In this document: positions 1,248-63,839 of the stretch, in pieces | Position numbering within the stretch: the first letter of the stretch is position 1 | How the letters are laid out: every line of letters starts with the position of its first letter | Assembly (NCBI GenBank): GCA_951406725.2 | Contig: OX597836.1 | Span: 29,698,001 to 29,762,000 of the forward strand | From: Octopus vulgaris | Taxonomy: Eukaryota | Reading direction: 5' to 3' | Length of the DNA stretch: 64,000 nt | Notes under the pieces: generated by a model | Seen by the model: only the letters and a program-made list of their open reading frames with translations | Database searches by the model: none | Told to the model about the DNA's origin: nothing | Made by a program: the position numbers and the translations under genes

Positions 1248-2527
1248 ATATACACAAATATATATACATACATATGTATGTGCACACACACATACATAAA
1301 TTTAGAGGTGGATAGTCAATTTAACTACTTTCAGTAAATGACTGATACTTTATTTATTTCTGGTTTTCTCTTTTAACCTTCTGTCCACCTCCAGAAGGCT
1401 GAATGGTAAATTCAACCTTGTTGGGACTTGAACCCCAGATATACAAGAATGTAACCACATTGTATTTTGTTTACCACTTTATCAATTGTGCCAGCACCTC
1501 TATGTAGTCATTTCGGAGAAAGGGCAGAAAGTAATCAGTTGTACAACTTCGGTGTTTGATTGATACTTATTTTATCGACCCAGGAAGAATAAAAGCATAA
1601 GCAACTTTCGTGAGATTTGAACTTGCAATGCTACAGAACACCTCTAAGTAATGCAATACGTTTTTGCCTGCTGCTATAACGATTCTGGATTTGTTACAAA
1701 ATAATTATTACAAAGATGTTTGTTAGTCTCTCAACACTCATTGCACTTCTTCATTATTCTAAATATGCCCCTCTCTAAAATTTAATTATCATTTTAAAAA
1801 ATATGAATATAGATGCAGATGTGGCTGTGTGGTAAGAAGATTGCTTCCCAACTATGTGGTTCTGGGTTCAATCCCATTGCTTGGTACCTTGGACAAATGT
1901 CTTCTACTGTAAGCACTGTAAGTGGATTTGGTATGCGGAAACTGAAAGAAGCTCTTCATGTATATATATTTGTGTGTGAGAGAGAGTGATTGGGTGTATA
2001 CATGTATATGTATATATCTGAAGACTTGTACTCAGCAGCAAAAGTGTTGAGACCTGCCCCCCCCCCCCACCTCCGCCCCCAGTGGTGAGGATTGTCTTGC
2101 AAGAGTCCTGTGCCAGTGCCATGTAAAAAGCACCCACATAGTGCCACATAATAGCACCCAACACACTCTGTAAAGTGGTTGGTGTTAGGAAGGGCATCCA
2201 GCCATAGAAACTATGCCAGATCAGACTGGATTCTGGTGCAGCTCTGGTCAAACCGTCTGACCCATGCCAGCATGGACAACAAACATTAAATGATGATGAT
2301 GTGTATGTGTAACTTTGTCCCCCACCCCAGTGCTGGATTTTGCTTTTGTCTCCGTAAGTTAGTGGTTTGGCAGAAAAAGGTGATAGAATAAGTATCAGGC
2401 TTAGAAATAAATACTGGGGGTCGATTTGTTTGACTAAACTCTTCAAGGTGGTGCTCCAGCATGTCCGCAGTCCTAAGATTGAAATAAGTAAAATATAAAA
2501 CATTAATTGCATCAGTTTCACCATATA

Positions 2528-18750: not shown

Positions 18751-21014
18751 AAACAGTCTTTCAATTTCTGTCTCCCAAATCCACTCTCAAAGATTTGGTT
18801 GGCCCAGGGCTATAGTAGAAGACACTTGCCTGAGGTACCACACGGTGGGACTGAACCCCAAACCATGTGGTTGGGAAGCAAATTTTTATAATGACATTGT
18901 AGGGTAGGTGTGAGGGGCTGGATTTGGCCAGTTTCATTGAACATAAAACAGGTAGGATATTTCAGGTCAGATATGGCCAGTTTAAAAAGGAAAGGGTTAA
19001 AATACCTAAGACATGCTGTATTTGCCATGATGATATGATGGAGTCAACACTTCTGTGTATTATATTCTAGAGTGTGTGTGTTGGTAAATGCTTCGTTTTG
19101 TGAGTCAACTGGATAAGATTCATTATCACTTCTAGGATAAAATAAGTCATATTAATCCACGATGGATACACCTCAGTTGAGACTGAAAACAGTTCATTGA
19201 CTCTGCTCTATTTATCATGTTTTGTTTTTCTGTTGTTGTTGTTGTTGCTGCTTTTTCTGAAGATCAATAAAAGCCATTGATTGATTGACTCACGGTACTA
19301 TTGAATCACCATACACTTATGCCTTACTCATATCAAAATATGTTTACTGCAGGTTCAGTTTCCCAAAAGTAGTAGTAGTGGTAGTGGTGGTGGTGGTAGT
19401 CATAATAGTAGTAATAGTGATGGTGGTGGCAGCAGTAATCGTAGTAGTAGTAGTAGGTGTTGCTGCTGTTGATGTTGTTTAACCCTAGGCCATTCAAACC
19501 TATGATCAAAGATAATGCAGCTCTTAACCATCTGACTTTTATTCATCTTGGATTTCAATAAACCCTTCCTTTTTTAGGTCTCACCTAGCTGCTTTTTCTA
19601 GCAAGTCGAGTGATCTCATAGCAAGAAAAAGCCAATTGTTTCTGTTATATCTATTGTTGCTCAGCCTCAAGGGAGCCCTGATCAAAGAAATCCATGATCA
19701 CAGCCAATCCAACAATGACCAGCTTGTTTTTTTGGGTTTTTTTCAGACAGTATCTTTTCTGACATTTTATCTTCTTATTCTTTTCAGTTATTGGACTGTG
19801 GCCATGTTGGGGCACTACCTTGAAGGGTTTTAGTCAAATAAATCGACCCTAGTACTTACGTTTTTAATTAAAGTTTGGTACTTATTCTATCAACTCCTTA
19901 TTCTGAACCACTAAGTTATGGGGATGTAAACAAACCAACACCAGTTGTCAAGCTATGGTGTGAGACAAACACAAAGACATACATACATACATATGACAGG
20001 CTTCTTTCAGTTTCTTATTCCTTTACTGCTCACAAGGGGCCACACACAGAAGGGACAGACAAACAGATCAAGTCGATTATATTGACCCCTGTGCGTCACT
20101 GGTACTTAATTTATCGACCTGAAAGGATGAAAGGCAAAATCGACCTTGGCGGAATTTGAACCCAGAATGTAGCAGCAGATGAAATACCTATTTCTTTACT
20201 ACCCACAAGGGGCTAAACACAAAGGGTACAGACAAATGGATTAAGTTGATTATATTGACCCCAGTGTGTAACTGGTATTTATTTAACCGCCCCCGAAAGG
20301 ATGAAAGGCAAAGTCGACCTCGGCGGAATTTGAACTCAGAACGTAGCAGCAGACGAAATACTGCTAAGCATTTCACCCGGCGTGCTAACGTTTCTGCCAG
20401 CTCGCCGCTTTTCAGTTTCTTTCAGTTCTTTCAGCTTCTTTTTACTAAACTCACTCACAAGGCTTTGGTCAGCCTGGGGCCGTAGTAGAAGACACTTGCC
20501 TAAGGTGCCATTCAGTGGGGCTGAACCCATCTAAAATTACATTATCCAGTGCCTTCTTTCATTTTTAAATTTTAGGCTTTGACGTGAGGGAGCTTTGGCT
20601 GCTATTTCTAACAGCACAAATGACAATGTAGTGACTCCTTTTGTTGGTGAGATGGTGGGTGATAGTGACTGGTGATGTATTTTGATACAAGAAGAGAATT
20701 TATCAAAGCAGAAGCAAATAAAATGTAATGTTACTGTCAAAGGTCAAATATTTTTACAATAGCTCTGGCATATGTCTTTTGTCTGTTACTTGTTTCAGTC
20801 ATACTTTTTTTTTTTCAGCCTGGTTATTTATCCTATTGGTCTCTTACTGAGCTGCTAAGTTACAGGGACATAAACAAACCAACACTGGTTGTCAAGCGGT
20901 GGTGTGAGACAAACACAGATATAAACACACACACACACTCACACACACACACACTCACTCACACACACACACACTCACACACACACATACACACGCACCA
21001 CACACACACACACA

Positions 21015-21464
21015 ATCTTGCTCAGAACATTGACCTCCTGGAATCTGTCCAGAGACGTGCAACCAAACGCATACCCTCCATCAGACACCTACCATATTCT
21101 GAGCGCCTTGTTTCCCTGGGCATGGATTCACTGAAGCTCCGGCGTCTGGCGACGGACTTGGTAAACACCCACAAAGTTATCAACCACCTCACCAACAACA
21201 ACACTGAACACCTTTTTGATCTCCATGTGTCTAACACACGTGGACATGCCTACAAAGTCAGAAAACAACACAGCTCCCATGACTTTCGGAAACATTTTTT
21301 CACGCTCAGAGTTGCTGAAGCATGGAATAAACTGCCTGCGTCAGTTGTTGACTGCCATGACACTGCATCCTTTAAGGCCCTCATGCTTTCCGAAATCCGC
21401 CGAAACTACACCTGATTATATATACACTTTAGATGAGTTGTAGTGCACCTGAGCACTGTACACA

Positions 21465-62462: not shown

Positions 62463-62816
62463 AATGGCTTGGTTTTTCTATCAAATGTGTGTTACTCTCA
62501 CCAAAATTTTGAAAATTAAAATTAAGAAATTGTTCTGAGTCACTTTTATGTACTAGTACCAACAGGACCCCTACACTTGAGACAGTTGTCATTTTTCTCA
62601 AAGAGGAACTCAAGTTTTCTACCTTGATGGAAGTCAGGTGTACTGTGAAGTTTCATTCAGAATAAACCCAATAATTTTGGTTCATCATGATGAAATTGAA
62701 GAAATGCTTAAGCCTCATTTTGCAAGAGTTGGAAAATCTGATGGATGGACTGATATGTTACCAAAATCATCATTTTTTCAGGGCAGTTTAGGGGTAAACT
62801 TGTTTGATGAAATTAA

Positions 62817-63514
62817 CCATTTTACTGCAGAAATCAGATATATCCTATCAAAATTTCATTACCCTTAACTGCAGAAAGCAGTTTTATTCATCAATCTATC
62901 TTTTGTTGAGGAATGTCATGCTTGAAACTAAATTCTGTTGAGTTGTGTCAAGTTAATTGAGGTAACACAACTTGCAGAAAATACCAATTTTATTTTTTGG
63001 TAGGTATTTAACATCATTACTGGAATAACCGAGAAATTTAATTTCACAACGAACAGGTTAAAGGTCCTTAACCTGTGATCAAATACATTCCAACCATGAC
63101 TATCATACTTTTTTCCAGACACACAGAATGTGTTCGCCCGCATAGCTCAGTCGGTAGAGCATCAGACTTTTAATGGCAGTGCCCCAGCATGGCCACAGCT
63201 CGTGAGCTGAAACTAGATAAAATAAAAAAAAAAAAAAATTCAGGACCACATTATCCAATGTCTCCTATTAACCCCTTTACAGCTGAAAACAGATATATCC
63301 ACTCAAAAATTCATTACCCTTAACTGCAGAAAGCAGTTTTATATCCCAATCTATCTTTTGTTGAAAAATGTCATGTTTGAAACAAAATTTTTTGCTGCGA
63401 TATGTCATGGTTATTGAGGCAAGGGAACTTGCAGAAAATACCAATTCTATTTTTTGGAAGATATTTGACATCATTTACTGGAATAACCCTGAAATTTAAT
63501 TTTACTGTTGAAGG
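62817..63514. mobile_element. Two diverged direct copies of a ~245-bp TTAA-flanked MITE (62817-63057 and 63272-63514)
   Basis: Shared cagatatatcc..cattacccttaactgcagaaagcagtttt..cttgcagaaaataccaatt; ttaaccc..gggttaa-type ends. Confidence 0.7.
63136..63174 (+). pseudogene. tRNA-Lys(TTT) 5' half (positions 1-39)
   Basis: GCCCGCATAGCTCAGTCGGTAGAGCATCAGACTTTTAAT differs at one position from the canonical metazoan tRNA-Lys-UUU 5' half as I recall it. The 3' half is absent. Confidence 0.9.
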
Positions 63515-63839
63515 GTTAAAAAGTATGAATCTGATATGTCATCATATAAAAAGGGTTCCTGATTATTATGGTGACACTGACTGTAACAATAAAAATTAAA
63601 GTAAAAATAGCAGCAAATATATTAAATGTTAATCTTTAATTTACTGTTTCCTCCTTATAAATACTACACGTTTTTACGGATTAGTCAGAAGAAGGAAGGC
63701 AGCACCAATGAGCATTTCAGGGCCTCTATGACTGATGGGGAGAGGGAATTATCTATGTGGCCTAAATACTTACAACAGAATGGATTCCAAGGGTCATTTT
63801 GATGCTGTTAAATTGGGCAATGGGTTAAGTCTAGTTCCT

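Follow-up and report, generated by a model that had tools for sequence, protein, structure and literature searches.

Small RNAs joined to the tail of a retroposon have been described in several forms, and U6/LINE chimeras, tRNA-half/L1 chimeras and the origin of SINEs from a tRNA and a CR1 tail are all already known. Each of these systems shares part of its structure with the octopus locus that we describe here. The published accounts, cited here and below in excerpt, include U6/L2 and U6/Mon-1 chimeras in platypus and U6/L1, L2, RTEX and AnolisSINE2 chimeras in anole (Doucet et al. 2015, PMC4476161), in which a small RNA is likewise attached, in sense, to the 3' terminus of either a stringent LINE or its SINE, with a short LINE part, duplications of 1-9 bp and template switching invoked as their origin; that survey covered U6 only, the U6 part was mostly 5'-truncated, and the excerpt describes no fixed LINE-side breakpoint. 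In the U6/L1 chimeras attributed to RtcB (Moldovan et al. 2019, PMC6789731), a full-length U6 with a T-run end is joined to the 3' part of a LINE, with variable L1 truncation. Primate tRNA-half/L1 chimeras (PMC11838501) combine about half a tRNA (nt 1-37) and a LINE in one insertion, but there the tRNA is mostly antisense, twin priming with cleaved halves is invoked, and duplications measure 9-19 bp. TguSINE1 and PittSINE (Suh et al. 2017, PMC5729268) carry a tRNA and a CR1 hairpin tail, and a template-switching origin has been proposed for them; both are amplified families whose founding event is inferred. Finally, precursor or 3'-truncated tRNAs have been copied into pre-tRNA and tailless retropseudogenes (Schmitz et al. 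2004, via PMC4476161), implying nuclear recruitment, but these were made by L1 and have no LINE tail. Further background is given in PMC5786205 and PMC4494074.

Here, we describe an insert in a 64,000-nucleotide window of the Octopus vulgaris genome (the whole stretch analyzed, C23:29698001-29762000 of a 2.8-Gb assembly), and show that it is a chimeric retrocopy and one case among a genome-wide process. Unlike the platypus and anole chimeras, this process joins U6, 5S and many pre-tRNAs to a LINE at one hairpin-foot position, where about half of the LINE's own copies also stop; in contrast to the RtcB chimeras, it uses a single position of the LINE and also links partners through their natural 5' ends. 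The window insert differs from the primate halves in being sense, likely leader-bearing, ended at a T4 and flanked by a duplication of at most 3 nt, and from TguSINE1 and PittSINE in lacking a B box, while its sister chimeras represent numerous founding events that are independent and unamplified. Unlike the retropseudogenes, the copies described here have a LINE tail. The insert has the tested features of U6/LINE chimeric retrocopies, and not those of a SINE, of RtcB-type chimeras or of twin-priming chimeras, the last of which would place the tRNA antisense to the LINE rather than on the same strand.

The head of the insert, at 63136-63174 on the plus strand, corresponds by sequence comparison to nt 1-39 of tRNA-Lys(UUU). 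The first 35 nt occur in identical form at 72 places in the genome (71 outside the window), and nt 1-36 (63136-63171) close with the T4 of the anticodon loop (63168-63171). The tRNA part lies on the LINE's strand and is joined directly to the LINE 3' end: it continues into a 49-nt retroposon tail at 63175-63223, followed by 15 A at 63224-63238. With LINE-tail positions numbered backward so that 63223, the T just ahead of the A-rich end, is -1, the final 52 nt of the LINE 3' UTR occupy 63172-63223, and the letters AAT at 63172-63174, which are also found here in LINE copies, fit tRNA nt 37-39 and LINE positions -52 to -50 equally well. Because AAT is common to both partners, the junction, which the first-pass annotation had fixed at the 3' edge of the anticodon loop, lies inside these letters or just 5' of them and is ambiguous by 3 nt; the source RNA may accordingly have ended at U36, A37 or U39. 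The A15 end reads as a variant of the LINE's (AAAAT)n-type end rather than as a sign of mRNA-type polyadenylation.

A tRNA-derived SINE would carry A and B boxes in its head and be present in many copies. The window insert has no T arm or B box, and neither ARAGORN nor Rfam called the Lys half in the window, where Rfam gave only microsatellite-driven miRNA matches. The composite is single-copy: just one of 44 listed matches is full-length (40 of 779 candidates scored), and a genome-wide pattern of D arm plus tail (gap of at most 13 nt, exact tail only) matched once. A longer tRNA-Lys SINE with this tail was not found among the Lys copies read. The first-pass annotation is therefore borne out both in describing a tRNA-Lys 5' half fused to a retroposon tail and in setting it apart from normal SINEs. 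Lacking a B box, the window copy is likely dead.

The insert sits in an older host repeat, whose left flank (63076-63129) has 11 listed paralogues at 83-93% identity and whose sequence resumes in the right flank at 63239-63505. Eight of these paralogues span the insertion site (two others, L067 and L068, diverge at the site, and L072 is unmatched there), and all eight lack not only the insert but also the six bases at 63130-63135, which places the start of the insert at 63130 rather than at tRNA nt 1 (63136), as initially annotated. With the start at 63130, the likely target duplication is AAT at most (63127-63129 and 63237-63239, the right copy being the last two A of the A15 end plus 63239); this replaces the TTC duplication suggested earlier, which the paralogue comparison rules out. 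The empty site, deduced from paralogues rather than from an orthologous allele, together with a duplication of at most 3 nt, points to a single insertion of the kind seen in U6/LINE-type chimeras. Contigs from four sequencing runs over 63180-63700 were mainly other copies of the repeat, and none of the listed pieces crosses the site. The closest relatives of the left flank are mostly on C23, and two units of the host family form a direct repeat in the window (62812-63047 and 63267-63505, 84% identical).

The tail can be traced to its parent. The 52-nt tail has 52 exact genomic copies, and at 29 distinct loci it extends upstream into a common element with variable 5' truncation. Two long copies align across ~3.2-3.4 kb and encode an RVT_1 domain (E 1.7e-28), and an Exo_endo_phos (APE) match that is weak and lies just under the cut-off (E 7e-5); the APE precedes the RT in ORF2, as in CR1-group LINEs, and the last reading frame ends ~25 nt upstream of the tail. 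We take the element to be CR1-like from its motifs rather than from a tree. An RTE-type fragment (in L210) differs at those motifs, and an RTE parent was dropped after the ORFs were read. The tail RNA folds into two adjacent hairpins, at 63174-63195 and 63196-63209 (z scores of -1.9 and -2.5 for the window tail and a LINE copy, respectively). A consensus fold of 14 tails from several families, trimmed at an anchor common to all, has 12 pairs, of which 3 show changes on both sides, two of them in hairpin 2. A 3' hairpin with short terminal repeats is the arrangement of a stringent-type LINE. The window's SINE tails, among them that of SINE A, to which the tail had first been related, are only 75-88% alike, whereas the LINE 3' end is identical, which rules out SINE A as the donor. 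Sequence identity thus marks the tail as the precise 3' terminus of a CR1-like LINE; this parent is at least 3.4 kb long and retains remnants of an RT and an endonuclease. Separately, one LINE copy (L016) has an internal deletion between two CACCAAAT repeats close to its 3' end, and the window itself contains an open reading frame at 20729-21415 (+), the end of which, going by a motif, resembles a CR1-type ORF2 C-terminus.

Copies of the LINE tail share a preferred breakpoint. We read 70 of the first 100 of 1226 exact matches to the last 30 nt of the tail, all on C1, and measured their starts by ungapped extension against six natural LINE copies. In this unbiased set, 32 of 70 tail copies start at -51 to -54 and 35 of 70 at -49 to -54; 15 are shorter and 20 longer (two of the latter under-measured owing to indels), with only two starting at -55 to -74. 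Hairpin 1 begins at -50, so that the hot-spot starts lie 1-4 nt upstream of it, and the window insert is joined at -52 to -50. About half of the tail copies therefore start within a span of 4-6 nt at the hairpin-1 foot. At -53 to -51, solo tails still show the GAA and AGA variants found in the LINE itself, which indicates that the boundary is set by position and not by a run of A. These variants also weaken an explanation in which TTT in the cDNA pairs with A-tailed RNAs; 4-6 A are found at 5 of 27 composite junctions.

A range of polymerase III RNAs is joined at this same point. In a set enriched by requiring T4 before the tail (417 overlapping matches, the first 100 representing 64 distinct loci on C1-C3, all read), 27 of 64 loci carry an identified head: 8 U6 (seven by Rfam, one by BLAST), 4 5S and 15 tRNA, of which 13 are long (10 by Rfam, one at 32 bits, the rest by ARAGORN or BLAST) and two are short 3' pieces matched to genes. 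About 8 likely tRNA 3' ends and 5 likely SINE parts, recognized by eye or recall only, are outside this count. The tRNA heads terminate in trailers and T-runs and the 5S heads in short trailers; U6, 5S and pre-tRNAs, the latter with leaders, trailers and sometimes introns, are thus joined at the hot spot by their terminal T-runs. An unspliced Leu(CAA) copy (L319), 43/44 identical to the gene L320, has the tail joined at -53. In the unbiased set, heads of the U6, 5S or tRNA type occur on 4 of 70 tail copies, and scaling this fraction would give ~70 RNA-headed copies for that one 30-mer. Head, trailer and tail subfamily vary among the sister chimeras, as expected of independent events, and the full-length ones are proto-SINEs. 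In two composites, target duplications enclose the whole unit (14 nt around a U6+SINE at L302, 12 nt around a Lys half+SINE at L123); across 27 tail composites, flank repeats average 6.8 nt versus 5.1 in 702 mismatched pairs (permutation p 0.0003), a weak test, since microsatellite targets inflate the result and one junction (L176) was mis-picked. The capture system envisaged in the first-pass annotation is supported to the extent that breakpoints fall at the natural 3' ends of U6, 5S and pre-tRNAs, but the expected clustering at anticodon loops was not seen: halves came only from Lys(UUU), which has a T4 there.

Reading from the U6 side gives a similar picture. Among the first 30 of 177 U6 3' ends, found with a query that required an intact 3' end, 7 are clustered genes, 4 carry the LINE tail at the hot spot, 7 carry related short hairpin tails, 8 are joined to whole SINEs at the SINE's usual 5' start, 2 to a second U6 at its 5' end, and 2 are other; none of the 30 is joined within a LINE body. 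All 21 U6 chimeras read are joined at the natural U6 3' end, for which the query selected, and 10 of 21 run into the 5' end of a SINE or U6. Trailer 3' ends are expected to carry a 3'-OH, and SINE and U6 5' ends a triphosphate or a cap, the 5'-end chemistry of these partners being deduced rather than read. RtcB, in the excerpt cited, acts on a 2',3'-cyclic phosphate and a 5'-OH, and its ligation falls sharply when it is offered a 3'-OH or a 5'-triphosphate instead (PMC6789731). The joins between U6 and the 5' end of an intact SINE or a second U6 favor end-to-end template jumping by the RT over ligation by RtcB, which would use a cleavage-made 5'-OH at variable LINE positions rather than the fixed one found here. 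Of the two routes first put forward, RNA ligation and template switching, it is switching that gains support; oligo(U) trailers joined to SINE and U6 5' ends argue against RtcB as a general route, and, judging from these joins, stringent LINEs seem to fall outside the ligation model of human U6/L1.

These observations suggest a model, in which we have moderate confidence, for the window insert: the LINE RT copied its own hairpin tail and then jumped to the U-ended 3' end of a T4-terminated pre-tRNA-Lys. Priming would have taken place at an AAT/T target, leaving a short duplication, and the foot of the hairpin would have acted as the 5' end of the template, either through run-off of the RT or through 5'-to-3' decay that left a protein-protected 53-nt RNA. 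From there the RT would have made an end-to-end jump to oligo(U) via 1-2 non-templated bases, and purines added to the cDNA could account for the extra C or T seen at several junctions, including extra C's at U6 junctions. The R2 RT is reported, in the excerpt cited, to jump between separate templates, which depends on non-templated addition and on an overhang of 1-2 nt that can pair with the 3' end of the acceptor (PMC8857657). The tRNA half itself would have been supplied by early polymerase III termination at the T4 of the anticodon loop.

Several findings bear on the nature of this half. Lys halves make up 3 of 18 dispersed copies (the window, L123 and L126), and all three end at the anticodon T4; at L123, T4 is followed by C and not by A37, while L126 is ambiguous because several bases are common to the start of the intron and the start of the SINE. 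Early termination at T4 was reportedly observed within a Xenopus lysine tRNA gene by Mazabraud et al. in 1987. The canonical polymerase III terminator is given, in the excerpt cited, as T4 or longer (PMC3141230), and the end of the insert fits a polymerase III stop at the anticodon T4; polymerase III likely stops inside germ-line tRNA-Lys(UUU) genes. At the other end, the six extra bases at 63130-63135 are likely a pre-tRNA-Lys 5' leader: with a single mismatch they match the leader in 6 of the 57 clustered Lys genes read, although none of the 57 provides an exact source. Because a leader-like hexamer precedes nt 1, the source RNA was likely a precursor and not a stress-generated half.

We consider it unlikely that a splicing intermediate supplied the half instead. 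In that scenario the splicing endonuclease would have freed a 5' exon with a 2',3'-cyclic phosphate on A37, RtcB would have wrongly ligated this exon to a LINE fragment with a 5'-OH at -51, and the product would then have been retrotransposed. The letters at the junction are compatible with this, and the genes offer such an exon. Vertebrate tRNA-Lys genes are not known to carry introns. In the octopus, Lys(UUU) genes are clustered (C6:97.56-97.61 Mb, C9:94.84-94.95 Mb and C9:118.4 Mb; L092-L115, L127-L135), and of the 57 clustered copies read, with part of the C9 cluster left out, 56 have an intron of 11-31 nt directly after nt 37, one is unresolved and none is intronless. No clustered gene read is intronless, but 6 of the 17 other dispersed copies lack the intron, which points to an RNA intermediate; one of them (L088) is spliced and tailed, and agrees with an intron-bearing gene in L135 at 44 of 45 positions across the 3' end and trailer. 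The spliced copies retain leader and trailer, which shows that splicing precedes end trimming and that a leader-bearing exon exists. RtcB does produce U6/L1 RNA in human cells, according to the excerpt cited (PMC6789731). Against this explanation, the exon end of Tyr or Leu(CAA) followed by the tail had no matches genome-wide (exact pattern only), and exon-1 halves were found in 0 of 4 dispersed Leu(CAA) copies, although in so small a control the difference from 3 of 18 Lys copies is not significant. Moreover, the L123 half stops before A37, and most sister chimeras use ends of the expected 3'-OH and 5'-triphosphate or capped type, which are poor RtcB substrates.

An internal switch, which would dispense with a half RNA altogether, seems to us similarly improbable: the RT would have stopped at the hairpin foot and moved through AAT into the anticodon loop of an intact, spliced pre-tRNA. 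AAT is exactly common to the two partners, and spliced pre-tRNAs were indeed captured at L087 and L088, but the U6 chimeras are uniformly joined at a natural 3' end (with the selection noted above), and L123 stops at the same T4 without such homology.

We regard as very unlikely the origin first suggested for the insert, a stress-cleaved mature tRNA-Lys 5' half joined to the tail, with the six extra bases untemplated or inserted locally at an earlier time. Halves of tRNA do occur at 21 loci in human L1 chimeras (PMC11838501, in excerpt), but mostly antisense to L1. As many as 9% of random hexamers come that close to some leader (one mismatch at most), so a chance match is conceivable, but only 1.0% of window hexamers reach the leader-matrix score of 63130-63135; with its single mismatch, the leader is evidence of moderate strength, and the sister tRNA chimeras carry trailers, as precursors do. 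The genome does contain one mature, CCA-ended tRNA-Lys retrocopy (L086, ~1485-1600, minus strand), which has a 15-nt target duplication and no LINE tail, and was made by a different LINE. We likewise give very little weight to two DNA-level events, in which an earlier tRNA fragment or longer SINE received a 53-nt solo tail at its T-run or lost an internal segment: solo tails are common, many in A/T-rich targets, but in the paralogue comparison there is one clean insertion and nothing left of a tRNA 3' half, the Lys copies read include no tRNA-Lys SINE that carries this tail, and target duplications elsewhere surround whole composites.

The gain of a stringent-LINE tail by a tRNA head has usually been deduced from finished SINE families, and here the founding step is visible many times over, through what would be a repeatable route by which new SINEs gain their tails. 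The fixed breakpoint on the LINE coincides with the start of the genome's abundant SINE tails, and the origin of SINE tails becomes testable, since both the RNA and the position are defined and template jumping can be set clearly against RtcB ligation. In the literature searched, with most subscription papers, Repbase reports and supplements outside it so that an earlier account may exist, we found no description of the hairpin-foot breakpoint, of such broad precursor capture or of a cephalopod system. We also put forward, as a tentative and rather speculative extension, that a discrete ~53-nt tail RNA of the octopus stringent LINEs, left when 5'-to-3' decay stops ~3 nt before a protein-bound hairpin, self-retrotransposes and serves as a universal adapter, with the RT jumping from its 5' end onto any nascent oligo(U)-ended polymerase III transcript. 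If this were true, the genome would be a standing SINE factory, which would explain why SINE tails start at the hairpin foot, and would hold a fossil library of the 3' ends of germ-line polymerase III transcripts, including those terminated early in tRNA-Lys(UUU).

Other arrangements of the tail and its partners were noted along the way. Two spliced pre-tRNA-Lys copies (L091 and L116) are joined at the T-run to a different tail of ~50 nt starting AAT(A/G)GTCGTTT, and in a one-mismatch genome search the L116 tail matched only itself. At L120 (~830-870), a full pre-tRNA and tail are preceded by several repeats of the opening bases of tRNA-Lys, resembling stuttering jumps. Head-to-tail U6-U6 dimers at L305 and L310 (~1420-1630), in which the second copy begins at its own 5' end, are likely serial template jumps, and two tails arranged as an inverted pair about a palindromic spacer (L020, ~1410-1560) possibly reflect fold-back during reverse transcription. 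Tandem arrays combine a U6 3' end and the tail with a period of ~86 (L021, 1421-1730) and part of a SINE and the tail with a period of ~247 (L023, 1504-2790), and a solo tail occurs twice in tandem at L060 (1437-1560). Short GC-rich heads with a T-run before the tail (L152, the same as L235, and L143) had no match in the small RNA library and are possibly the 3' ends of other polymerase III RNAs. Finally, parts of one tRNA-headed SINE family with T-run ends are, by eye, joined to the LINE tail at L137, L163, L180 and L216, a possible case of tail exchange under way.
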